A stretch of DNA of 64,000 nucleotides from the NCBI GenBank assembly GCA_963846575.1, contig CAWJWJ010000001.1:608001-672000 (forward strand), read 5' to 3'. Made by a program: the position numbers and the translations under genes. How positions within the stretch are numbered: position 1 is the stretch's first letter; each line of letters starts with the position of its first letter. Positions 14,058 through 29,520 of the stretch are shown here, in pieces. The notes under the pieces are model-generated. The model did no database searches, had not been told where the DNA came from, and saw nothing but the letters and a program-made list of their open reading frames with translations. The DNA comes from an uncultured Nitrospiraceae bacterium. Lineage in GTDB: Bacteria; Nitrospirota; Nitrospiria; Nitrospirales; Nitrospiraceae.

Positions 14058-15314
14058 CTAAAGCGCCAACGTCGGGAACTTCGGCAAGGCAGACTCGCTC
14101 ACGCCGGTGATTTTCATGACCACGTCGGACAACTGCTGTACCCGCTCGGATTTGATCGCCTCGAATCCATGACCGAGAATGGCGTGGTTGGCGGCATCGA
14201 GCAGCGGCTTCATCTTCGGCCAGTCACGAAGAAACGCTTGGCCCATCTGGTCCCCAAGCCCCGCAAGCGCGCGAAACTGACCCTGCAACGGCAATTTGTA
14301 TTTCCCGTCCACGTCGTCCTGATAACAGGTGCGGCAGGTCTCACGTAGCGCCTCCGGAAGCTGGTCCGGCTGCACGTCCCAGGTCTTGATCTTGTACTGT
14401 TTGAACAGCTGACGCTGAGCGGAGGCTTCCAGCGCGCGCAGGAGGGCCACCATGGCCCGCTCGGGATCGTGGTCGAGCTGGGCACGACGGTGTGCGTGGG
14501 CTAAAAGGTCAAGCGCGACGCCCTCTTTGACCTCGGCAGGGTCGAGGACGAGCCGTTCCAGAAATCCACTGTTCGCCTTGATGAACGGGAGCAGCGCCTT
14601 CAGTCCGGGCGGCCCGCCCCACAACGACGCCATGTCGAGTGCCTTCAGCGAGGTCTTGAGTTTTTCCCAGGCCTGCCGGTAATGAAATTGTTCCCAGAGC
14701 GCATAACCTACCGCGAGGTCGCCTAAGGCGCGATAGAGCGGCTTCTGCCCCCCGCTCACGCGAGCTTCCAAAGTATGGAACAGAATGGACGCAGCCCTGA
14801 ACGATCCGTGATTGAACGCTCCGCACGCTTCCTTGCGAACGCCGACCGCCGCTTCATCCCAGGGGTTGCCTTGCAGCCAGCGCTTGGCATGGCCGTCGAT
14901 GACAATTGCTTCGTCGGCCTCCGGCCCCGCGACATCGACCAGGCTGATGACGCGCGAGGTCCAGGGTTGACAGGCAGAGGCCAGCGCTGCCCCCATCGCC
15001 GATGTCGCTCCGGTGAGATCCACGACCAGGTCGCCGACGTGCACATCCCAGGCTTGGAACAGGTCCTGGAGGGAGCGCGACAGAGCCTGGTGGCAGGCGA
15101 TCACATCCGCCGCATCAGGGGTGACCACCCAGTCCCATCGCTTCGGCATCTGCTGCACCTGTGGCTGCACCGCCTCTTCGACCAGCATCTTGGCCGATTC
15201 CGGCACAAAGAAGCAGAGCAATTCCGGCTGCAACCGGTTGATCACGTAGGCCGCCAGGGACGGGGCGTCCGTGAAGGCGACGACGAGGGCTTTGACGGGC
15301 GTATCCGACGGCAT
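14058..15314 (-). CDS. TIGR02710-like CARF-HEPN protein, orphan, with degenerate motifs
   Basis: CARF-like N-terminus (VVDLTGATSAM, NP motif), W..F.Y..A, DLLA.A.RR, RALE..AQ..L, N..ILGHG. Confidence 0.75.
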   Translation of the reverse strand: MPSDTPVKALVVAFTDAPSLAAYVINRLQPELLCFFVPESAKMLVEEAVQPQVQQMPKRWDWVVTPDAADVIACHQALSRSLQDLFQAWDVHVGDLVVDLTGATSAMGAALASACQPWTSRVISLVDVAGPEADEAIVIDGHAKRWLQGNPWDEAAVGVRKEACGAFNHGSFRAASILFHTLEARVSGGQKPLYRALGDLAVGYALWEQFHYRQAWEKLKTSLKALDMASLWGGPPGLKALLPFIKANSGFLERLVLDPAEVKEGVALDLLAHAHRRAQLDHDPERAMVALLRALEASAQRQLFKQYKIKTWDVQPDQLPEALRETCRTCYQDDVDGKYKLPLQGQFRALAGLGDQMGQAFLRDWPKMKPLLDAANHAILGHGFEAIKSERVQQLSDVVMKITGVSESALPKFPTLAL

Positions 15315-15323
15315 GATCCGCGG

Positions 15324-15353
15324 ACTATACCATCGCACTCCGCGCCGGTTCAA
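15324..15353 (-). promoter_or_regulatory. sigma70-type promoter with a very short leader
   Basis: TTGAAC-18 nt-TATAGT (extended -10 TG), 9 nt before ATG 15314. Confidence 0.55.
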
Positions 15354-15513
15354 TGAACGGGGTTCGCACGGGTTCTTGTCGGAGCAGAGACCATCGTGAG
15401 CCCTGTCAACGAGCCGTGCCACCCTGGCCGCAACTTGTTCTCAAGAAACGGGACAAAGACGACCAGGCGGGACCGGAGTGGCATTTCCGGCCGGAGGAGG
15501 TCGGACTTCTCGC

Positions 15514-17945: not shown

Positions 17946-18497
17946 GCCGCCCTCCGACAGTACGCCGGGAATGTACTCGACGATGACCTCCAGGACGCGG
18001 ACCAGCCATCCGGCGCAAGAGCCGCCCGGCCGGACGGACCGGCAGCGCGCCGCGGAATCAAGCCTGCCGCTGCGGAGCCGTGTGGATCGCGGAGCATCGG
18101 GCGGGAACCCCGCCGTTTCACCACGGCGGGGATTTCCTCCATCGGTAGGCCCTGCAGCAGGGCGTGGTCGTATCCTGATTCCAAGTCCACCCCCTCGCCC
18201 CTGCAGCCGCAGCCTCGTGACCGTTCCAGAGAAAGCAAAACCAGTCCTGTGCGGCGCCATTCACAGGGTATCGTCCACTCACCCACCTCCACAGAGTAAC
18301 AACTAACCGGGTGGTATGATATCCCGCCGCACGGCCGTGCCGGGTTTTTCTCTCGCCTGGTGCTCATCCACCCCTGCCGGAGAATCCGCCTGTTCTTCCG
18401 TAACAACTTCATTTTGTTGACCCTTTCGGGAAAGACGCCTAGACTTTGCCGGTATCGATCATTCATTTCTCCACGATTTCTCTACGCGAGCACACGA

Positions 18498-18932
18498 ATG
18501 GCCTGGTGGATGTGGGCATTTCTGGGATTGGTCCTGCTGGGCGTCGAAATTACGACTCCCGGCGGGTTCTACATTTTCTTCTTCGGACTCTCGTCGCTCG
18601 TGGTGGCGGCGCTTGCGGGATTCGGGATCACTGAAGCGGAATGGGTCCAGTGGCTGCTCTTTTCGGTGATGTCCGTCGCGTCGCTGTTCGTGTTCCGCGG
18701 CCCGCTGCTACGTATGATCAAATCACATGAGGTATCAGGACCGGCGATCGACACCATGATCGGAGAGATCGCCATCCCGCTCGAACCGTTGGCGCCCGGC
18801 AGCACCGGGAAAGCGGAATGTCGCGGTACGGCCTGGACCGCCCATAATGCCGGGCCGGTCGGTCTGGCGAAGGGACAGCGCAGTCTGGTCGATCGGGTCG
18901 AGGGCCTCGCCCTGTGGCTCAAACCGGAATAG
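18498..18932 (+). CDS. NfeD-like membrane protein
   Basis: TM N-terminus and OB-fold-like G..W.A C-terminus, upstream of the SPFH gene. Confidence 0.85.
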   Translation: MAWWMWAFLGLVLLGVEITTPGGFYIFFFGLSSLVVAALAGFGITEAEWVQWLLFSVMSVASLFVFRGPLLRMIKSHEVSGPAIDTMIGEIAIPLEPLAPGSTGKAECRGTAWTAHNAGPVGLAKGQRSLVDRVEGLALWLKPE

Positions 18933-18950
18933 GCTGAGGGAGTTCTCAGG

Positions 18951-19904
18951 ATGGAGGAATCAGGTATGTCAGGTGGATTGATGGTCATGGTCGTCCTGGC
19001 GTTCCTGGTGGTGCTGATCATCGCCAAGACCGCCCGCATTGTCCCGCAACAAAGCGCGTATGTGGTCGAACGATTGGGTCGGTACTCCCGCACCCTGAGT
19101 GCCGGGTTCCACATCCTGATTCCCTTCATCGACGCCGTCCAGTATAAGCACTCACTCAAAGAGACCGCTGTCGATATTCCTGAACAGATCTGCATCACGC
19201 GCGACAACGTGCAGGTCGGGGTAGATGGCATCCTCTACATCAAAGTACTCGACCCGCAACGGGCGTCCTACGGCATCAACGACCATCGCTTCGCCATTAC
19301 CCAGCTGGCTCAGACCACGCTGCGAAGCGAGATCGGCAAGATCGATCTCGACCGGACCTTTGAGGAACGCACCAATATCAACCTGCAGGTTGTCAACGAA
19401 CTCGACAAGGCGTCAGAGCCCTGGGGCATCAAAGTGCTCCGCTACGAAATCAAAAACATCACGCCGCCCAAAGACATTTTGAACGCCATGGAAAAGCAGA
19501 TGCGGGCGGAACGGGAAAAACGTGCCGTCATTCTGGCCTCGGAAGGAGAGCGGGACGCCGCCATCAATCAGGCGGAAGGGGTAAAGCAACAGGTCATCAA
19601 GGCCTCGGAGGCCAGAAAGCAGCAACAAATCAACGAAGCGGAAGGTGCCGCGGCGGCGATCACGGCCATTGCCGCCGCCACGGCAGAAGGCCTGAGAAAG
19701 GTGGCCGAGTCGACTCAAATCCCCGGTGGGTACGAAGCCATCCAACTACGGGTCGCGGAGCAATACATCGGCAAGTTCGGCGAGCTGGCCAAGACCAGCA
19801 ATACCCTGGTCCTGCCGGCGAATGTCGCCGATGTGGGCTCGATGTTGGCGCTAGCCATGAACATGATCACGAAACGTTCCTCCCCGACGCCGCCTGCGAG
19901 ATAA
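18951..19904 (+). CDS. SPFH/stomatin-like (paraslipin/QmcA) protein
   Basis: VVERLGRY, ITRDNV, AQTTLRSEIG, QMRAEREKRA. Confidence 0.93.
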   Translation: MEESGMSGGLMVMVVLAFLVVLIIAKTARIVPQQSAYVVERLGRYSRTLSAGFHILIPFIDAVQYKHSLKETAVDIPEQICITRDNVQVGVDGILYIKVLDPQRASYGINDHRFAITQLAQTTLRSEIGKIDLDRTFEERTNINLQVVNELDKASEPWGIKVLRYEIKNITPPKDILNAMEKQMRAEREKRAVILASEGERDAAINQAEGVKQQVIKASEARKQQQINEAEGAAAAITAIAAATAEGLRKVAESTQIPGGYEAIQLRVAEQYIGKFGELAKTSNTLVLPANVADVGSMLALAMNMITKRSSPTPPAR

Positions 19905-19921
19905 GCAGCGGTTCCACCCGT

Positions 19922-19950
19922 TTGACAGTGGCTTGACGGTTCCCTACAAT
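19922..19950 (+). promoter_or_regulatory. sigma70 promoter giving a leaderless gmhA mRNA
   Basis: TTGACA-17 nt-TACAAT, 7 nt before ATG 19958. No SD sequence. Confidence 0.7.
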
Positions 19951-19957
19951 TCCGCCC

Positions 19958-20536
19958 ATGAAAGATTTCGTCATCAAGGCGTTCGATGAAAGTGCCGACG
20001 TCAAGCGGCGCTTCGCCCGGGACCACGCCGACAAGATCGGTGAGGTCGCGCAGGTCATCGGGCAGGCCTTTCGAGAGGGACGCAAGGTCCTGCTGTTCGG
20101 CAACGGCGGCAGTGCGACCGACGCCGCACACATGGCGGCCGAATTCGTCGGTCGATACAAGCGGGAACGCGCTCCCTTACCGGCCATTGCTCTCGCCACC
20201 GACATCGCCGCCATCACCTGCATCGCCAACGACTACGGCTTCGAAGCCCTTTTCGCCCGTCAGGTGCTCGCGCACGGCCAGAAAGGCGACGTCGCCATCG
20301 CCATCAGCACGAGCGGCAACTCCCCCAATGTCCTCAAGGGTATCGAAGCGGCCAGATCTCTCGGCCTGACGACGATTGCCTGGACCGGCGGTTCGGGCGG
20401 CAAGCTGGCCGGCCTTGCAGACTATGCCTTTATCGTGCCCTCGACCGTTACCGCCCGCATTCAGGAGAGCCATATCACGTTGGCCCACGTGCTTTGCGAA
20501 CTGATCGAGGACCAGGTTCTTGCCAACCCGGCGTAA
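19958..20536 (+). CDS. gmhA: sedoheptulose-7-phosphate isomerase
   Basis: GNGGSA.DA.H, ND, STSGNS, RIQESH. Confidence 0.95.
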   Translation: MKDFVIKAFDESADVKRRFARDHADKIGEVAQVIGQAFREGRKVLLFGNGGSATDAAHMAAEFVGRYKRERAPLPAIALATDIAAITCIANDYGFEALFARQVLAHGQKGDVAIAISTSGNSPNVLKGIEAARSLGLTTIAWTGGSGGKLAGLADYAFIVPSTVTARIQESHITLAHVLCELIEDQVLANPA

Positions 20537-21518
20537 GCGCACCAGTCACCCTGCCGTCCCTCCCGCGATCATCCAGCCGATAGATACATCGCGCCTGAAG
20601 ACCTATCCGCTCCAGCGACGTCACAGCAAAGTCCAGGTGGCACACTTTGCCAAGGCCTGGCCCGTCGGCCGGTCGTTGAGTCACTTTCTCGACTCGCTTC
20701 CCGACATCCTGGCGGTCAAAACGTTGCGCGAAGTGGCGCAGGCCATCGCGAAGGCCCATCGGCGCGGTCGCCCCGTCATTGTGGGCATGGGCGCCCATGT
20801 GGTGAAGGTGGGGCTGGGGCCGCTCCTGGTGGACCTGATGGAGCGCGGCATCGTCACGGCTCTCGCGATGAACGGCGCCGTGATCATCCACGACTTCGAA
20901 CTGGCCTTCATGGGGCATACATCCGAGGAGGTCGACGCGGAAATCGATTCGGGACGATTCGGCATGGCGGAAGAAACCGGTCGCATGTTGAACGAGGCCA
21001 TCTCGCTGGGCATGAAGGAGGGCCAGGGCCTGGGCGAATCACTCGGGCTCTACATCAATCGCCAAAAACGGCAGTTTCCGCACCGCGCCACCAGCCTGCT
21101 GGCGACCGGAGCGCGCCTGGGTATTCCCGTCACGGTCCATGTGGCCGTCGGGACCGACATCATTCACATGCATCCGTCTGCCGACGGTGCCGCAATCGGT
21201 GCCGGATCACTGCTCGATTTTCGCCGCCTCGCGGCCGTCGTCTCCGCGATGGAAGGCGGAGTCTACCTCAATCTGGGCTCCGCGGTGATCCTACCGGAGG
21301 TGTTCTTGAAAGCCGTCTCCCTTGGACGCAATCTCGGCCACCCGCTCACGAACATCACGACCGTGAATATGGATTTTCTGACGCACTACCGCCCCATGAC
21401 CAACGTCGTGCGCCGTCCTACGCAAAAAGGCGGCAAGGGCTATGCGTTGACCGGGCATCACGAGATCATGGTGCCGCTATTGGCGGCCGCTGTGCTTGAG
21501 GAATTGGCGGGCCAGTGA
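20520..21518 (+). CDS. deoxyhypusine-synthase-like conserved protein
   Basis: GAHVVKVG, NGA..IHD.E, TVHVA.GTDI.H, GSAV..PEVFLK, GHHE. TTG start overlapping gmhA. Confidence 0.7.
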   Translation: MPTRRKRTSHPAVPPAIIQPIDTSRLKTYPLQRRHSKVQVAHFAKAWPVGRSLSHFLDSLPDILAVKTLREVAQAIAKAHRRGRPVIVGMGAHVVKVGLGPLLVDLMERGIVTALAMNGAVIIHDFELAFMGHTSEEVDAEIDSGRFGMAEETGRMLNEAISLGMKEGQGLGESLGLYINRQKRQFPHRATSLLATGARLGIPVTVHVAVGTDIIHMHPSADGAAIGAGSLLDFRRLAAVVSAMEGGVYLNLGSAVILPEVFLKAVSLGRNLGHPLTNITTVNMDFLTHYRPMTNVVRRPTQKGGKGYALTGHHEIMVPLLAAAVLEELAGQ

Positions 21519-21564
21519 CGCGGACTTCCCGATAGCGCCTGCCGTCGCAGACACGGGAGAAATA

Positions 21565-22197
21565 GTGACCACCACCCTGCCCACGACGGAACTGCTGCTC
21601 GCCAGCTGGGCGGATCTCAACTCCCGCTACTTTCGTGGCGCCTTGCCTCCGATTCGCATCGAATGGAGCCGTCGACTCACCTCATCCGCCGGAATGTTCG
21701 TCTGCCGCATGGGCCCCCGGCACGCCGTGGCACCGCTAACCGCTGACGACAGCCGGCGGCGTTGCATCAAACTTTCGGCGATCCTCCTGCATAAACAGGG
21801 GTCGCACGACGCACACGAGACCTTGACGACGCTGGCCCACGAAATGATCCATCAATGGCAATACGATATTCTGAAGCGTCGCCCGAATCATGGCCGCGAT
21901 TTCCGGCGCATGATGGCGCGGATGAATGAAGAAGGCCTTGGCATTACGATCTACCACTCACTGGGCAGGGAAGTGGCCGCTTTGGCCAAGTATGCCTGGC
22001 GCTGCCAGCGTTGCGGCTCGATCTACCATCGCCAGCGCCGGAGCATTCAACCGCGGCGGCATTCCTGCGGTGCCTGTCGAGGACCGTTACGCGAACTGAC
22101 GGTCGCGCAGGACGACTCGCGGCCGACAGTGGAACCGGCACCCGTCGCGACCGGGGCCACCGGACCGCAACTGATCCTGCCCTTCCGCGTCCCGTAG
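21565..22197 (+). CDS. SprT-family zinc metalloprotease with Zn ribbon and C-terminal QLILPF
   Basis: LN..YF...LP, W..RL...AG, HEMIH, H..F, CxxC..CxxC. GTG start after GGGAG. Confidence 0.85.
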   Translation: MTTTLPTTELLLASWADLNSRYFRGALPPIRIEWSRRLTSSAGMFVCRMGPRHAVAPLTADDSRRRCIKLSAILLHKQGSHDAHETLTTLAHEMIHQWQYDILKRRPNHGRDFRRMMARMNEEGLGITIYHSLGREVAALAKYAWRCQRCGSIYHRQRRSIQPRRHSCGACRGPLRELTVAQDDSRPTVEPAPVATGATGPQLILPFRVP

Positions 22198-22205
22198 GAC
22201 CATCC

Positions 22206-23399
22206 ATGTCCGCCCGATGGCTTCGACAAATTCTTTTCGGCGACATCGATGCGATGTTTGCTTCGGCGGCTGTCTTGTCGGATCCCTCCCTCGCCGGGAG
22301 ACCGATCGCCGTCGGTGGTCCGCCCCCTCGCGGCATCATCGCGGCAGCCAGTTACGAAGTGCGCCGGTACGGGGTCCATTCCGCCATGCCGACCATGACA
22401 GCCCTCCGGCTTTGTCCCGGACTTGTGTTAGTTCCACCCGACCGGCCGCTGTACGACCGCCTGCATCACGAACTCCAGCTGGTGACGGACCGGTTTTTCC
22501 CTGAAACCGAATGGACCAGCGTCGACGAGTTTTATACCGACACCACCCGGCTCCAAACACGGCATCCCGATCCTCACGAGCTGGGTCATGCGCTCAAGGC
22601 CGGCATCCGCCGCTCGACCGGATTGACCTGTACGGTCGCGGTGGCGTCGGGCAAAGCCGTCGCGAAGATCGCGGCCGACACGCATAAGCCTGATGGCCTG
22701 GCGGTGATCGAGCCGGGCACTGAGGCGGCCTTCCTGGCTCCGTTGCCGGTTCGCTCCCTTCCCGGGATGGGACCCAAATCCACCGAGTCAGTCGAACGCC
22801 TGGGGATTCGGGTCGTCGGTGATCTGCTCGCGCCGCGCTTCGAATCGTCGCTCGCTCGCCTGTTCGGCACGCGTTTCGCGACGCTCCAATTACTGGCCCG
22901 GGGAATCGATACCGATCCTGTCGTGGCGGACCGCGAGGCGAAAAGCGTGAGCCATGAGACGACCTTCGATGAGGATACCAATGATCCGGCCCTGCTGGAA
23001 CCGATTGTCCATGGCTTTCTGGAGCAACTGACGCATGATCTTCGAATGGAAGGGCTGGCCGCCGGTTCGTTCACCGTCAAACTTAAGGACGCCCGGTTTC
23101 GCATCACGACGCGGCAACGGAGATTCTCCACGCCGGCAAACTATGATCCGGCGATGTGGCCGAGCATCAGGCTCGCCCTCACCGAGCTGATGCAATCTGG
23201 ATCACGATACCGGCTGGTAGGTCTGGGACTGTCGGATCTGACCACGGCCCCCGTACCGCTCTTCGACCGGCGGCAACGCGACGCCGTCGCTGTTCTCGAT
23301 CGCTTGATCGAACAGCACGGTTCCGGCGTGGTTCGTCTGGGAGGACTCCCGGCTGCGGGCGAAAGTAAGAAGAAGCGGGACCATCACCGGAAACCGTGA
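22206..23399 (+). CDS. dinB: DNA polymerase IV (Y-family)
   Basis: DIDAMFAS, AASYE.R.YGV.SAMP, SVDE, AKIA....KPDG, KSVSHETTF. Confidence 0.92.
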   Translation: MSARWLRQILFGDIDAMFASAAVLSDPSLAGRPIAVGGPPPRGIIAAASYEVRRYGVHSAMPTMTALRLCPGLVLVPPDRPLYDRLHHELQLVTDRFFPETEWTSVDEFYTDTTRLQTRHPDPHELGHALKAGIRRSTGLTCTVAVASGKAVAKIAADTHKPDGLAVIEPGTEAAFLAPLPVRSLPGMGPKSTESVERLGIRVVGDLLAPRFESSLARLFGTRFATLQLLARGIDTDPVVADREAKSVSHETTFDEDTNDPALLEPIVHGFLEQLTHDLRMEGLAAGSFTVKLKDARFRITTRQRRFSTPANYDPAMWPSIRLALTELMQSGSRYRLVGLGLSDLTTAPVPLFDRRQRDAVAVLDRLIEQHGSGVVRLGGLPAAGESKKKRDHHRKP

Positions 23400-23485
23400 G
23401 CTGCCCATAGCGGGGAGCGAGAGAACCATTGCTTCAAGAGGCACCCTCCCCCTAAGATAAGGTTTTTCGAATTGGCATCGATTCT

Positions 23486-23968
23486 ATGCACTCAAAAGTC
23501 GTTATGCGCCCACAACTGGTCTCCCTCCTGGGAGAACCTCGCCGTAAACAACAGGTCCTGGTCTTTACCAACGGCTGCTTCGACCTCATGCACATCGGCC
23601 ACACGCGCTACCTGCAGGCCGCCCGCGACCTTGGTGATCTGTTGATCGTGGGCGTCAATTCGGACGCATCCGTACGAACCTTGAGCAAGGGCGCCGACCG
23701 CCCCATCGTGCCGGACGATCAACGGGCCGAAGTCCTCGCCGCGTTGTCCTGCGTCGATTATGTGGTCATTTTTCCAGAGCCAGATCCCGGTCCGCTCATC
23801 GCGGCCCTCCAGCCCGATATTCTCGTGAAGGGCGGAGACTGGCCGTTGGATCGAATTGTGGGCCGGGAGACGGTCGAGGCTCGAGGCGGACGTGTCCAGA
23901 CGATTCCTCTCATCCCCGGTGTCTCGACAACGACTTTGTTACAGCGGATTCGTTCCACCACAGCGTAA
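23486..23968 (+). CDS. rfaE2: D-glycero-beta-D-manno-heptose 1-phosphate adenylyltransferase
   Basis: TNGCFDL.H.GH, NSD.SV, KGGDW, STT. Confidence 0.93.
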
Positions 23969-23975
23969 GGACCTC

Positions 23976-26900
23976 GTGCCGCCCATCGCGCCATCGCATC
24001 TCATCAATTGGCTCACTCCTGCGCGGGACGCCCTTCAGACAGGCAGTAGCAAGCCCTGCCTGGTGGGTTTGCACGGCTCGACGGCCGGCTTTGGCCTGGC
24101 GCTCCTGACCCAGAACGCCACGAACCAACCCCTCGCCGATCGGTCCTGGCTGGTGGTCGCTAAGACCGACGATGAGGCGGAACGCCTCTATGGCGATACG
24201 CTGTTTTTTCGAACCCTCTGCGGGTTATCCGGCGACGATCTGGCACTCTTCCCCAAGTGGGAAACCCTGCCCTATGAATCGACCGTGCCCCATATTGATC
24301 TGGTGGCCCGCCGCATGCAGACCTTGCAACGCCTCTGCACCACGTCGCGCACGGTGCTGTTCACGTCGATGCCGGCACTCATGCAGCGTGTCCTCCCCGC
24401 GCTCGTCTTTAGCGACGCCGTGCTCCACTTCGAACCGAACGGGGATCTGGAACGGGAGGTCCTGGTGTCCAGACTGTTGCGCTTGGGGTACCGGAAGAGT
24501 TCCGTGGTGGAAATTCCCGGCGAGTTCAGCATCCGCGGCGGGATCGTCGATATTTATTCGACGGCCTATCCCGACCCGCTACGAGTCGAATTCCTCGGCG
24601 ACACCATCGAGTCGCTCCGGTTCTTCGATCCCGCCACCCAGAAATCCACCGACAAGGTCAAGCAGGCTTGGGTATTGCCCGCTCGTGAGTTGATTCGTCC
24701 GGAGGAGGCCCCCGACGCCTTAGCGCCCCTGCCGGCAGACGCCGAATGGCACGCGCCTTCTGTCTACGGCGCGATGGACAGTCTGCTGGATTATTTCCCC
24801 CGTCCGCCGGTGGTCGTCCTGGATCAACCGAACACGCTCAAGGACCAGAATGCGGCATGTTGGCGGGCTATTGAAGAAGGGTATCTCCGTCATGAAGACC
24901 GGACGGACCCGAATCCCTACCCGACTCCCGATCAACTGTATGTCACATGGGATCAGATTGTCGACGCGACTCATGGCTACGCCACGCTCGCCTTGGAACC
25001 GGTCACGGCGCCGGATGCGACCTGGGACCCCCTCGTCACCTGTCCGGCACAAACGCCGGCGAGCGTCGGGCTCGGCCAACGCGGCACCGCGTTCAGTCAT
25101 ACGCTGGAAGTTCTCGACCGGCTGCGCGAAAGCGGGCCCGTCGTGCTCGTCGCCCGCAGCCAGGGCCAGGTCGGTCGCCTGCTCGCGCTCTTCAGCGAAC
25201 ACGATCGCCCCGCCGTTGAATGGAAGCCCGCGGCGCTCTCGGCCGGCGGCGCACAGAAGGCCCCCTTCTCCGTTCTCAACGGCGAGGTCTCAGCCGGTTT
25301 TCTCTCCCCGGATCTGCGCCTCGTCGTGCTCACGGAGGAAGAACTCTTCGCCAAAGGCACTCGCCACAAACCGCAGGCCAAGAGCAAGGCCGCCACGTTT
25401 CTCTCCTCGCTGGAAGATCTGAACGTCGGCGACTATGTCGTGCACATGCAGTATGGCATTGCGAAGTATCAGGGACTTCGCCGCCTGTCGGTTCAGGACT
25501 TTGACAGTGACTTCCTGGTGTTGGAGTTTGCCGGAACGGACAAACTTTATGTGCCCCTCGATCGGCTGAACCAGGTCCAACGGTATGCGGGAGCCGACGC
25601 CCATGTGCCCCGCCTGGATCGGCTGGGCGGCACCAGCTGGGCGAAGACAACCGCGCGGGTCAAAAAAGACATCGAGGAGATGGCGCACGAGCTCGTCGAT
25701 CTCTATGCCAACCGGGAACTGGTCCACCGAACGTCGTACGGCAAAGACAGCATGCTGTATCACGAGTTCGAGGCGGCCTTCGAGTATGAGGAAACGCCTG
25801 ATCAACGTCGGGCCATTGAAGACATCGCGAATGACATGGCCTCCACCAAACCGATGGACCGCCTCGTCTGCGGCGATGTGGGGTACGGCAAGACCGAGGT
25901 GGCCATGCGGGCCGCTTTCAAGGCAGTGGAAGAAAATCGCCAAGTCGCCGTGCTCGTCCCGACCACGCTGCTGGCGCACCAGCACTACGACAACTTTGCG
26001 GAACGGTTTGCGCCCTTCCCCACCCGTGTCGCCCTCCTCTCCCGTTTTCAATCCCCCAAGGAGACCAAAGCGATTATCAAGGACACTGCGGCGGGCGTCG
26101 TCGATGTGTTAATCGGCACCCACCGTCTTTTGCAGAAAGACGTGCAGTTCCGCAACCTCGGACTGGTGATCATCGACGAGGAACAATGGTTCGGCGTGAA
26201 ACACAAGGAACGTCTCAAACAATTGCGCACCCAGGTCGACGTCTTGACCCTGACCGCCACGCCGATTCCCAGAACCCTGCAAATGACCATGGCGAGCGTG
26301 CGCGACCTTTCGATCATCGATACGCCTCCCTCCGGCCGGCTGGCCATTCGCACACAGGTCTTACGATTCAGTGAGAAGGCCATCCGGGAGGCGATCTTGC
26401 GCGAACTCGGCCGCGGCGGCCAAACCTACTTCGTCCACAATCGGGTGGAAACCATGGAGCGGATGGGGGCCTGGCTCCAGGAACTCGTGCCGGAGGCTCG
26501 CATCGTGATGGCCCACGGACAGATGGACTCCAAACCGCTGGAAGCCGTGATGCTGAAGTTTTTCCATCGGGAGGCCGATATCCTGATCGCCTCCGCCATC
26601 ATTCAATCCGGCCTGGATGTGCCGACCGCCAACACCATCATCGTCAATCGTGCAGACGCGTTCGGACTGGCCCAGCTGTACCAGCTGCGCGGGCGGGTCG
26701 GCCGGGGCGGCGAACAGGCCTACGCCTACTTTCTCGTGCCGGACGAGGGCTCGCTCTCGGATGATGCCCAGAAACGCCTGACCGCCATTCAACAATTTAC
26801 CGAGTTGGGATCCGGCTTCCGGATTGCGGCAGCGGACTTGGAGATCCGCGGTGCGGGCAACTTGCTGGGCAAGCAGCAGTCGGGGCATATCGCGGCTGTG

Positions 26901-27449
26901 GGCCTCGATCTGTACCTGCAAATGGTCGAACAGGCCGTCCAACGGCTGAAAGGCCAGGTGGTGGAGGAGGAACCGGATCCCACGTTGCGCCTCAGCGTCT
27001 CGGCGTTCATTCCTGAAGATTACGTGGTGGACAGCCACCAGCGCCTGTCGCTGTACAAGCGTCTGTCTTCCTGCGGGCAACTCGGGGACTTGGCGTTAAT
27101 GCATGGTGAAATTGAAGACCGGTACGGACCGCCTCCCGATCCCGTTGAACGTCTCTTCGAGATGATGCAGATCCGTCTTCTGGCCAAGCAGCTTCGTTTG
27201 AGTTCCGTCGTCGAACAGCCTCACGCCGTCGTGATCACCTTCGATCCCAAGGCCATGGTTCCTGAGGCCGCGGTGCAAGCCTTGATGGACCGGTACAAGA
27301 AGCGGTTGCGTTTTCTGTCTCCCCTCTCCTTTGAACTCCAGATGCCGCATGAAGACTGGAGTTTGGTCTTTCCGGAACTCAACGCAACCTTGCAAACCCT
27401 CCTGGTCTGTGGTACCAACAGACAAGGGCCACAAACGGGCTCGACCTGA
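23976..27449 (+). CDS. mfd: transcription-repair coupling factor
   Basis: GDVGYGKTEVA, DEEQ, TATPIPRTL, QLRGRVGR, DLEIRGAGN, TRCF C-domain. Confidence 0.97.
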   Translation: MPPIAPSHLINWLTPARDALQTGSSKPCLVGLHGSTAGFGLALLTQNATNQPLADRSWLVVAKTDDEAERLYGDTLFFRTLCGLSGDDLALFPKWETLPYESTVPHIDLVARRMQTLQRLCTTSRTVLFTSMPALMQRVLPALVFSDAVLHFEPNGDLEREVLVSRLLRLGYRKSSVVEIPGEFSIRGGIVDIYSTAYPDPLRVEFLGDTIESLRFFDPATQKSTDKVKQAWVLPARELIRPEEAPDALAPLPADAEWHAPSVYGAMDSLLDYFPRPPVVVLDQPNTLKDQNAACWRAIEEGYLRHEDRTDPNPYPTPDQLYVTWDQIVDATHGYATLALEPVTAPDATWDPLVTCPAQTPASVGLGQRGTAFSHTLEVLDRLRESGPVVLVARSQGQVGRLLALFSEHDRPAVEWKPAALSAGGAQKAPFSVLNGEVSAGFLSPDLRLVVLTEEELFAKGTRHKPQAKSKAATFLSSLEDLNVGDYVVHMQYGIAKYQGLRRLSVQDFDSDFLVLEFAGTDKLYVPLDRLNQVQRYAGADAHVPRLDRLGGTSWAKTTARVKKDIEEMAHELVDLYANRELVHRTSYGKDSMLYHEFEAAFEYEETPDQRRAIEDIANDMASTKPMDRLVCGDVGYGKTEVAMRAAFKAVEENRQVAVLVPTTLLAHQHYDNFAERFAPFPTRVALLSRFQSPKETKAIIKDTAAGVVDVLIGTHRLLQKDVQFRNLGLVIIDEEQWFGVKHKERLKQLRTQVDVLTLTATPIPRTLQMTMASVRDLSIIDTPPSGRLAIRTQVLRFSEKAIREAILRELGRGGQTYFVHNRVETMERMGAWLQELVPEARIVMAHGQMDSKPLEAVMLKFFHREADILIASAIIQSGLDVPTANTIIVNRADAFGLAQLYQLRGRVGRGGEQAYAYFLVPDEGSLSDDAQKRLTAIQQFTELGSGFRIAAADLEIRGAGNLLGKQQSGHIAAVGLDLYLQMVEQAVQRLKGQVVEEEPDPTLRLSVSAFIPEDYVVDSHQRLSLYKRLSSCGQLGDLALMHGEIEDRYGPPPDPVERLFEMMQIRLLAKQLRLSSVVEQPHAVVITFDPKAMVPEAAVQALMDRYKKRLRFLSPLSFELQMPHEDWSLVFPELNATLQTLLVCGTNRQGPQTGST

Positions 27450-27478: not shown

Positions 27479-28375
27479 ATGACAGCACCGCTCACATTCC
27501 ACAGGATCGACCGGCAGGTTCGCGTGACCTGGTTCGCGCTTGGGCTCTGGGTCTTCGCTCCCTTGGCCGCCTGCACTCAACCTCCGCAGGAAGAACCGGT
27601 CATCGCCATGGTCAACGGGCGATCCATCACGCAATCTGAATTTGATATGCGCTGGGAGGAACTCTCGCAGGCCACCCGCACCAGATATGAAAAAGAAGGC
27701 GGAAAGCGCCGCTTTCTTGATGAATTGATCATGCGCGAATTGCTCATGCAGGAGGCGCGCAAGCAGGGATTGGATCAGAACGATGACATCCGTGAAAAGA
27801 CCTTACGCTATCGTGAGCAACTGATCCTGGATGAACTCCTCAAAGATCGGCTCAAGACCAAAGTCGAAATCTCCAAAGACGAGCTGGATGCCTACCTCGG
27901 GAAACATGCCAACCAGCTGTTGGCGAATCCCAAGGTGCAGGTATCGGTGATGTTGTTGCCGAACATTTATGCGGCGAAGGACCTCAAGCGGCAGGTGGAG
28001 GCCGGCGGCAACTTTTCGCGCTTTGCCCTTCGCTATTCCATCGATGAACGGAGCCGCGCCAAAGGCGGCGACCTGGGTCCCTATCGCAAAGGCCTTCTGG
28101 AACCGGAACTCGAAGCATTGATTCCCTCCCTCCATGCGGGAGCGGTCAGCGATCCGGTGAAGACCGACAAGGGCTATTACCTGATGAAGGTGAGTCCGCT
28201 GGATCCGGAAATCCTCCAAAAGGATCAAGCCATCCGCGAACGGCTCCGGCAGGAACTTCTGGCCGAAAAGCACAGGAAGCGGCTGGAGGATATTTACACT
28301 GACCTCCGCTCCGGCGCGACGATCCGTCTGGCCGACGCCGCGCGTTATGTGACCGATGAACCCGCTCGTCCCTAG
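27479..28375 (+). CDS. PrsA/PpiC-type peptidyl-prolyl isomerase lipoprotein
   Basis: Lipobox LAAC, SurA-like N-domain, F..A..YS.D, GGDLG. Confidence 0.85.
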   Translation: MTAPLTFHRIDRQVRVTWFALGLWVFAPLAACTQPPQEEPVIAMVNGRSITQSEFDMRWEELSQATRTRYEKEGGKRRFLDELIMRELLMQEARKQGLDQNDDIREKTLRYREQLILDELLKDRLKTKVEISKDELDAYLGKHANQLLANPKVQVSVMLLPNIYAAKDLKRQVEAGGNFSRFALRYSIDERSRAKGGDLGPYRKGLLEPELEALIPSLHAGAVSDPVKTDKGYYLMKVSPLDPEILQKDQAIRERLRQELLAEKHRKRLEDIYTDLRSGATIRLADAARYVTDEPARP

Positions 28376-28485
28376 TCATCATCCCATTCGACTCCTGCGT
28401 ACCTGCGTTCTGCGCCCTTCCGTACATGGCATGATGAACGCGCTCCCCTTCTGACCTGTCGATTGTGTACAATTCCCTCATTGCC

Positions 28486-29520
28486 ATGAAGGATCGAACC
28501 ATCTTCCTCACCATGTGCCAACACCTCGTACGGTTCATCCCTCGCGAAAGCCCATGGCCGCCGCGTTCGTGGAGGAGCGACTTTCCCGCTCTCCAGGCTC
28601 TGGGCTGCCTGTTGCTGGCGCTCTCCATCCTCCCGCTTGGTCTCGATTCTGCGCAGGCCGCAAGGCTGGAGGATCGCATCATCGCGGTGGTTAATAAAGA
28701 TCTCATCATGCTCTCGGAACTGAAACGAGACCTCCTTCCCGAGCAGGACCGCCTTCGCAAATTGTACAAGGGAGAAGAGTTGGAGCGCCGCCTCCAGACT
28801 GCGGAGGCCATGGCCGTGACGAAGATGATCGAGCGCAAACTGCAACTTCAAGCCGCGCAAAACAAAGGGCTCGAGGTATCGGATCAGGAAGTGGTCCAGG
28901 CGGTAGAGGAAATGAAGAAACAGGGAGAGCGGCTCGACAGTGGTGACCCCAATACGGCCCGGAACGTCCGGGAGCAACTGACCTTGATGCGTGTGGTCGA
29001 TCGGGAAGTCCGGGGTGTGATTATGGTGGGCGAGTCGGATATGAAACGCTACTACGAGGAGCACGAGGACCGCTTCGCCTATCCGGAGGAATATCAGTTA
29101 AGCCAGATCCTGATCAAGCCGAGCAGTCCCGAGGAAACGTCGATCGCCCGCGGTCGGGCCGAAGCCCTTGTCGCCACTCTCAAACAGGGGGATTCGTTCG
29201 AAGAGCTGGCGCTCCGGTTTTCGGACGGTCCCGGCGCATCGCGTGGCGGCCGGCTGGGATTGGTGCGACAGGGCGAACTGATTCCCGCATTGGAGCAGGC
29301 GCTGACGTCGCTGGAGGTGGGGCAGACCACGGGGATCGTCGAGACGGCGGAAGGATTACACATCGTGCGCGTTGACGATAAGAAACCCCGTCAATTTCGA
29401 CCCTTCGAACAGGTGAAGACGGAAATTCAGTCGCTGGTGTTTCAGCAGAAAACCGAGGATCAATATAAACGCTGGATGGCCGACCTGAAGGACAAGGCGT
29501 ACATCGACATTAAGTTTTGA
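28486..29520 (+). CDS. SurA-type chaperone/peptidyl-prolyl isomerase (start uncertain)
   Basis: DRIIAVVN, FEELA..FS, GG.LG, GLHIV. Confidence 0.85.
   Translation: MKDRTIFLTMCQHLVRFIPRESPWPPRSWRSDFPALQALGCLLLALSILPLGLDSAQAARLEDRIIAVVNKDLIMLSELKRDLLPEQDRLRKLYKGEELERRLQTAEAMAVTKMIERKLQLQAAQNKGLEVSDQEVVQAVEEMKKQGERLDSGDPNTARNVREQLTLMRVVDREVRGVIMVGESDMKRYYEEHEDRFAYPEEYQLSQILIKPSSPEETSIARGRAEALVATLKQGDSFEELALRFSDGPGASRGGRLGLVRQGELIPALEQALTSLEVGQTTGIVETAEGLHIVRVDDKKPRQFRPFEQVKTEIQSLVFQQKTEDQYKRWMADLKDKAYIDIKF

Follow-up and report, generated by a model that had tools for sequence, protein, structure and literature searches.

A SPRTN-like SprT metalloprotease of Nitrospirales with a conserved, predicted beta-clamp-binding hexapeptide

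Introduction

Human SPRTN, a 489-aa protease of eukaryotic DNA-protein crosslink (DPC) repair, combines a SprT-type protease domain with a zinc module and a flexible tail that carries a PIP box. Mutation of its residue R185 impairs activity (PMC7534798), and PIP mutants of SPRTN still cleave DPCs (PMC9240642). In GCNA/ACRC proteins, the SprT domain is followed by a C2C2 finger (PMC5098910). Canonical bacterial SprT proteins, such as YggI of Escherichia coli (PRK04860) and the members of PRK04351, have the PF10263 domain, a zinc ribbon and a conserved arginine. On the side of the replication machinery, ligands of the bacterial beta sliding clamp of the Hda/DinB type present a hexapeptide Q-L-x-L-x-[FL] near a flexible terminus, and the Hda hexapeptide QLSLPL is given as a tight clamp binder in a recent preprint (bioRxiv 10.1101/2025.03.10.642433).

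According to a 2026 review, a dedicated repair of DPCs by proteolysis lacks clear evidence in bacteria (PMC13705206). In the mostly open-access literature that we covered, we found no published description of a bacterial SprT bearing a clamp motif, a prior mention being possible; as far as the accessible texts go, papers pairing the beta-clamp with SPRTN dealt only with eukaryotic DPC repair and with a SPRTN-like fold in mycobacteriophages. Here, we analyze a locus of an uncultured Nitrospiraceae bacterium in which a SprT gene with such a motif precedes dinB. The window, i.e., the whole stretch of DNA that was analyzed, comprises 64,000 nucleotides (assembly GCA_963846575.1, contig CAWJWJ010000001.1, positions 608,001 to 672,000).

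Results

Gene neighborhood and origin of the locus

The locus reads gmhA, a GSU2086-family gene, sprT, dinB, rfaE2 and mfd (Table 1), and the dinB start codon lies 8 nt past the sprT stop codon. A preliminary description, made from the letters of the window, had reported a SprT protein with HEMIH, a third histidine, a CxxC/CxxC ribbon, a P/A/T-rich linker and a terminal QLILPF, followed closely by a dinB with only PVPLF where a clamp motif would be expected; all of these features were confirmed in the respective reading frames.

Table 1. Features of the sprT-dinB locus; positions count from the first letter of the window.
Feature	Position	Strand	Basis or remark
Sigma-70-type promoter, TTGACA-17-TACAAT	19922..19950	+	11/12 consensus positions matched
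gmhA, sedoheptulose-7-phosphate isomerase	19958..20536	+	TIGR00441, 202 bits, slightly below cut-off 209
GSU2086-family gene	20520..21518	+	NF052581 above cut-off
sprT, SPRTN-like SprT metalloprotease, 210 aa, pI 10.6	21565..22197	+	GTG start, TAG stop
Active-site HEMIH, with H109 as third zinc ligand	21838..21891	+	HExxH in 132/132 and third His in 131/132 orthologs
Basic CxxC...HxCxxC zinc ribbon, invariant R156	22003..22077	+	PF17283, net charge, SPRTN alignment
Variable low-confidence linker	22099..22167	+	pLDDT <50 at residues 182-191 and 193-197
QLILPF, Hda-type hexapeptide, predicted beta-clamp ligand	22168..22185	+	Ortholog conservation
dinB (DinB/Pol IV)	22206..23399	+	ATG start; IMS domains, intact catalytic motifs
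PVPLF, degenerate xxxLF at the DinB clamp-motif position	23250..23264	+	Behind the little finger
rfaE2, heptose-1-phosphate adenylyltransferase	23486..23968	+	TIGR02199 above cut-off
mfd, start approximate	23976..27449	+	TIGR00580

In three loci of outgroup Nitrospirota (L250, L267 and L273), gmhA, the GSU2086 gene and rfaE2 are contiguous, and mfd comes next in L250 and L273. This contiguity indicates that sprT, with or without dinB, is a later insertion into a pre-existing block, which bears out the earlier statement that the pair interrupts a heptose cluster. It also means that the adjacency of mfd and rfaE2 is older than the sprT insertion, so that the proximity of mfd, noted correctly in the preliminary description, is inherited synteny and no evidence for a repair module. 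The commonest neighbor of sprT is the GSU2086 gene, a non-repair gene that adjoins it in 30 of 36 Nitrospiraceae genomes. The local GC content resembles that of the flanks, and the search for a mobile origin was negative, with weak matches and no close relative in viral contigs, no relative in phages, one weak archaeal match in plasmids and one weak PHROGs family.

Two further observations concern the rest of the window. Downstream of mfd lie two tandem SurA-like PPIase genes (27479-29520), and a 454-aa open reading frame on the reverse strand (14058-15422) resembles, as judged by eye, CARF/TIGR02710-type CRISPR-associated proteins.

The promoter upstream of gmhA likely drives gmhA, the GSU2086 gene, sprT and dinB together; of 94 distinct regions upstream of gmhA, 92 have a similar sigma-70-type site. 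The end of the promoter, 7 nt before the gmhA start codon, suggests a leaderless transcript, and the operon appears to be constitutive and common to the heptose genes. Both of the genome's lexA-like genes (including the one at G000 C2:948976) have the palindrome TGTAAC-N5-GTTACA in front of them. No copy of this lexA-like operator was found within three mismatches in positions 18001-23500 of the window; since recA also goes without it, its use may be confined to the lexA-like genes. Elsewhere in the genome, a lexA-like-imuB-dnaE2 cassette (L128:4268-9109; G000 C2:2377267-2382108) stands divergent from a uvrB-like gene.

Architecture of the SprT protein and its relation to SPRTN

The sprT product matches the Pfam SprT-like domain PF10263 with an E value of 2e-18 (66.8 bits versus a cut-off of 25.6) and also carries Zn_ribbon_SprT (PF17283). 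HEMIH occupies residues 92-96, the ribbon is C147xxC150...C168xxC171, the P/A/T-rich linker spans residues 179-201, and QLILPF corresponds to residues 202-207. The ribbon is strongly basic, with a median net charge of +8 over the orthologs, and the tail is unstructured in the AlphaFold model. Judged by PF10263, sprT is single-copy in this genome.

The relatives in the clade that have names come from Nitrospira, which are nitrite oxidizers, and other Nitrospiraceae. Among 36 Nitrospiraceae genomes drawn evenly and 16 genomes of the sister family, the clade was found in 36/36 and 15/16, respectively, and elsewhere there was one marginal cross-match; sprT is near-universal in these two Nitrospirales families. 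In the sister family, the gene resides in a different neighborhood and the motif is intact. A 466-aa match (P0123) is a frameshifted read-through of GSU2086 and sprT rather than a SprT-DinB fusion, and no fusion was found among the best 7990 candidates scored.

Several comparisons place the protease domain close to SPRTN. Human SPRTN was the best PDB sequence for a profile of the clade (E value of 3e-25, compared with 1.5e-11 for the single-sequence query), and 6MDW and 6MDX, both SPRTN, were the only Foldseek matches to the SprT model below an E value of 0.001. The VIA comparison with SPRTN gave a Z score of 11.8 over 108 residues at an rmsd of 3.1, a match that covers the protease domain alone, and the SPRTN-type protease domain was the top structural match overall. 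The clade profile scores SPRTN-type proteins at 85-100 bits versus 21 bits for E. coli YggI, and the protein falls far short of the NCBIfam cut-offs for canonical SprT (38.1 of 113 bits for PRK04351 and 23 of 175 bits for PRK04860). In a search of 1.84 billion representatives, the matches ranking next after the clade itself came from a small group of cyanobacteria, and behind these stood proteins of the SPRTN-type, GCNA-like and small prokaryote-like kinds; Pfam classification covered 47 of the 150 listed matches. The likeness to Spartan claimed initially thus held in the profile, Foldseek and VIA comparisons alike.

Shared with human SPRTN are HEMIH with the third histidine, the ITxYH linker, the WRC start of the zinc module, the basic character of a DNA-binding module and a flexible tail bearing a motif of clamp type. 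The invariant R156 aligns with SPRTN R185 by HExxH numbering, in the 6MDW alignment and with a weevil ortholog; YggI and the small SprTs of prokaryotes have an equivalent arginine too, making it a family-wide feature. In contrast, SPRTN Y179 and W197 fall in gaps of the alignment, i.e., in loops that Nitrospira SprT does not have, and the zinc module differs: PF22934, carried by the SPRTN-type matches, was not found in the sprT product, which has the C4-type PF17283 ribbon instead. With just 39 residues after the ribbon, this 210-aa protein has no SHP, PIP or UBZ elements, and a predicted beta-clamp hexapeptide takes the place of the PIP box. GCNA/ACRC proteins likewise join a SprT domain to a finger, but the Nitrospira protein lacks a long acidic disordered region and an HMG box and stands on a separate branch of the tree. 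YggI, finally, differs in having neither the tail nor the clamp motif.

In a quick tree built from 61 protease domains, the Nitrospirales proteins fell outside the SPRTN rows, which form a branch of their own (SH-aLRT of 96). This tree has long branches, resolves neither the deep order nor a sister relation to SPRTN, and draws on a partial eukaryotic sample, some long SPRTN- and GCNA-like matches having been left out. A transfer of the gene from eukaryotes, also considered, is unsupported by this tree. The nearest bacterial relatives form a group typified by Synechococcus PCC 7336 (P0168 and P0284-P0291); the seven proteins viewed end just past the ribbon, with no tail or clamp motif. Taken together, Nitrospira SprT likely works like SPRTN, yet it is no SPRTN ortholog.

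Conservation of the terminal hexapeptide

A hexapeptide of this kind is easily met by chance. In this genome, 10 of 3601 crude open reading frames had the loose pattern within their 20 C-terminal residues, with 11.3 expected, and 3 had a tighter form there, with 1.2 expected; chance carriers include TonB and PilN proteins. Since the genome-wide frequency is about that of chance, the single occurrence of QLILPF proves nothing, and it is conservation that carries the case. From 158 ortholog loci, one without sprT and three others (with an open end, no ribbon and a read-through) were set aside, which left 154 loci and, among them, 132 tails that differ from one another. Of these non-redundant tails, 111/132 contained the strict pattern Q[LFIVM]x[LF]x[FL], with 2.1 expected from shuffled tails, which answers in the affirmative whether the C-terminal QLxLxF is kept in SprT orthologs. 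A relaxed pattern matched 123/132 tails (4.1 expected from shuffles), a count to be read with the reservation that this pattern was widened after the tails had been inspected, which makes the strict count the less biased figure. Of 119 database homologs examined, 116 had a ribbon, and the strict motif was present in 112 of these.

The distance from ribbon to motif varies from 23 to 66 residues across orthologs, and a median of three residues follows the motif. The glutamine is present in all 123 relaxed matches, both of its codons being used, and the leucines are written with several codons. The motif is missing from nine of the 132 tails, mainly through truncation. An origin of the conservation at the DNA level, such as a ribosome site for dinB, was ruled out, given that codons vary and that the motif persists where dinB is absent: 83 of the 88 tails from loci with dinB show the relaxed motif, as do 40 of the 44 from loci without it, the latter including one locus with a truncated dinB. 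By this pattern of conservation, the terminal hexapeptide is a short protein motif under selection at a flexible end. As for its variants (L096, L097, L104, L105, L130, L140, L146, L147 and L149), most SprTs with tryptophan at position 6 of the motif (QLxLxW) come from loci without dinB, and in one clade lacking dinB, this position is leucine.

The clamp and a second SprT-like family

The Nitrospira protein shows a mark of beta-clamp-binding proteins, the conservation of Q-L-x-L-x-[FL] within a terminal segment that is flexible, its peculiarity being that the predicted ligand is borne by a protease. The DnaN of this genome (G000 C1:701633-702763) is ordinary. Residues T176, H179, L181, P252, V257, N330, Y333, P356, M372 and P373, which we take to be the positions lining the peptide pocket in the E. 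coli clamp, are kept in it and are invariant in 30 Nitrospirota clamps. Other proteins of the genome carry a QxxLF motif, namely MutS, a uracil-DNA glycosylase (L127:1787-2455, ending QMDLF) and a radical-SAM protein (L125:1510-2757, ending QLELF). We consider it very probable that the SprT hexapeptide binds DnaN.

A PF10263 search over 121 genomes of the phylum, followed by inspection of 23 distant loci, revealed a second SprT-like family (L323-L352; e.g., L309:911-1591 and L350) that is only distantly related (hhalign probability of 34%); the sequences viewed have no ribbon cysteines. Here, Q-L-x-L-x-F stands at the N terminus, in 23 of the best 30 loci versus 0.6 expected, and one of these motifs is again QLILPF. 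Among the distant loci of the same phylum, YgjP-type proteins and three canonical SprTs were without the motif. The second family occurs in 67 of 221 phylum genomes and in none of the 36 Nitrospiraceae or 16 sister-family genomes; this complementary distribution is suggestive, following lineages rather than independent events. That two families bear an identical kind of peptide, one at the C terminus and the other at the N terminus, is the best argument for a docking signal. At L331, L338 and L340, the second-family gene immediately precedes mfd in the same orientation.

Distribution and features of DinB

Counting as orthologs those DinB proteins with an identity of at least 58%, we found one in 15/36 Nitrospiraceae genomes, adjoining sprT in 14 of these 15. 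Linkage is therefore not limited to this genome, being present in 14 of the 36. On the other hand, the expectation that dinB adjacency would be conserved across sprT orthologs was not borne out: an ortholog is absent from 21/36 Nitrospiraceae and 16/16 sister-family genomes, although many genomes hold other Y-family genes, and sprT occurs without it in 21/36 and 15/16, respectively. What stands of the proposed sprT-dinB module is the close adjacency wherever the ortholog occurs and the consistent lack of a Q-type motif in DinB; what does not stand is an obligate pair. A quick sprT tree showed about 10 changes of the dinB label, at least three of them forced by well-supported branches, a pattern consistent with an ancient adjacency that was lost repeatedly. 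In one genome (G241), dinB is separated from the GSU2086 gene by one gene (L152:4502-6859), and sprT is found on another contig.

The DinB of the window has the IMS domains, scoring 253.5 bits versus a cut-off of 256 for PRK02406, and its D13, D107, E108 and F18 have aligned counterparts in E. coli Pol IV, in which we take the first three to be catalytic and F18 to be the steric gate. The catalytic motifs are kept in 84/84 distinct full-length DinBs. Unlike the Pol IV type, however, these proteins carry no Q-type clamp motif after the little finger (0/84) and have an extra C-terminal extension beyond the xxxLF; xxx-L-[FY] is present in 83/84, and the corresponding site in the genome's own ImuB reads QCNLF. 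The DinB xxxLF may retain some weak clamp-binding function, or it may indicate that a partner recruits the polymerase.

Discussion

The reading that we favor, at a probability of roughly 0.55, is that Nitrospira SprT is a clamp-tethered, SPRTN-like, DNA-activated protease that would trim crosslinked or trapped proteins at replication forks, with the adjacent DinB as an optional helper. The conserved hexapeptide would dock the predicted protease on the beta sliding clamp, and the zinc ribbon would bind DNA and switch the protease on, which by analogy with SPRTN we regard as probable. The protease would then cut proteins crosslinked to or trapped on the DNA and met by the fork; that such proteins are the substrates is a somewhat less secure part of the picture, to which we lean nonetheless. 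The leftover peptide would be removed by nucleotide excision repair (NER) or bypassed by the adjacent DinB, or else by ImuB-DnaE2 or another enzyme. The role of DinB in this last step, where the gene is present, strikes us as doubtful. The 2026 review holds that translesion synthesis (TLS) and Mfd of E. coli do not act on DPCs (PMC13705206), which counts against the polymerase step, although E. coli YggI lacks the tail. The cleavage of DPCs by SPRTN PIP mutants (PMC9240642) also weighs against the reading that we favor.

The evidence from the motif, however, tells where the protein acts rather than what it cuts, and SprT might instead be a clamp-bound regulatory protease for particular replisome or repair proteins, such as stalled polymerases or clamp partners, and no general crosslink protease. 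Its near-universal presence in the order and the lack of a damage-inducible operator in view would suit such a role, as would the regulation of TLS by SPRTN itself (PMC9240642). We nevertheless hold it to be unlikely, as the closeness to SPRTN over protease domain and linker, along with the basic ribbon, fits DNA-triggered, sequence-independent cutting. A reading that starts from DinB, in which SprT trims the crosslinked protein and recruits the motif-deficient polymerase as the second step of a dedicated module, draws on the adjacency of the ortholog in nearly all family genomes having it, across about 50% SprT divergence, on the retention of catalytic residues in DinBs without the glutamine, and on the bypass of acrolein DNA-peptide crosslinks by E. 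coli DinB (PMC3901139). Yet sprT has kept its motif through several apparent losses of dinB, the GSU2086 gene is its more constant neighbor, xxxLF motifs also occur in other polymerases, and one ancestral insertion accounts for the adjacency, all of which renders a dedicated two-step module distinctly improbable.

The hexapeptide might also be no clamp ligand at all, folding back on the protein or binding another partner, and SprT might then have a housekeeping role away from DNA, perhaps with the heptose/LPS operon. The place of sprT in the gmhA operon, its frequent position beside GSU2086, and the chance occurrence of such hexapeptides at the ends of TonB and PilN proteins would agree with this. 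It is hard to reconcile, however, with the sister family, whose sprT keeps the motif elsewhere in the genome, with a tail that is unstructured in the model, and with the same Q-L-x-L-x-F at the opposite end of another family, and we judge it very unlikely. Returning to the clamp-tethered protease, one could extend this reading to a general scheme in which clamp-tethered SprT provides replication-coupled bacterial DPC proteolysis, evolved repeatedly, with families replacing each other in Nitrospirota and with SprT of Nitrospira also bringing its co-transcribed, motif-deficient Pol IV to the trimmed adduct, as a bacterial counterpart in two genes of SPRTN plus TLS, a scheme that we put forward as a long shot.

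What this locus adds is a close likeness to SPRTN, a quantified independence from dinB and a complementary second family. Nitrospira sprT is a small, single-copy candidate close to SPRTN, with a conserved clamp-type motif, for DPC proteolysis in bacteria, and the question of a bacterial DPC protease thereby becomes testable by peptide binding and DNA-dependent cleavage. That another, distant protease family bears this motif as well suggests that proteases have been recruited to the clamp repeatedly. If the proposed function is true, a pathway thought to be eukaryotic would extend to bacteria, and the Nitrospira protein would offer a minimal model of SPRTN without ubiquitin control.
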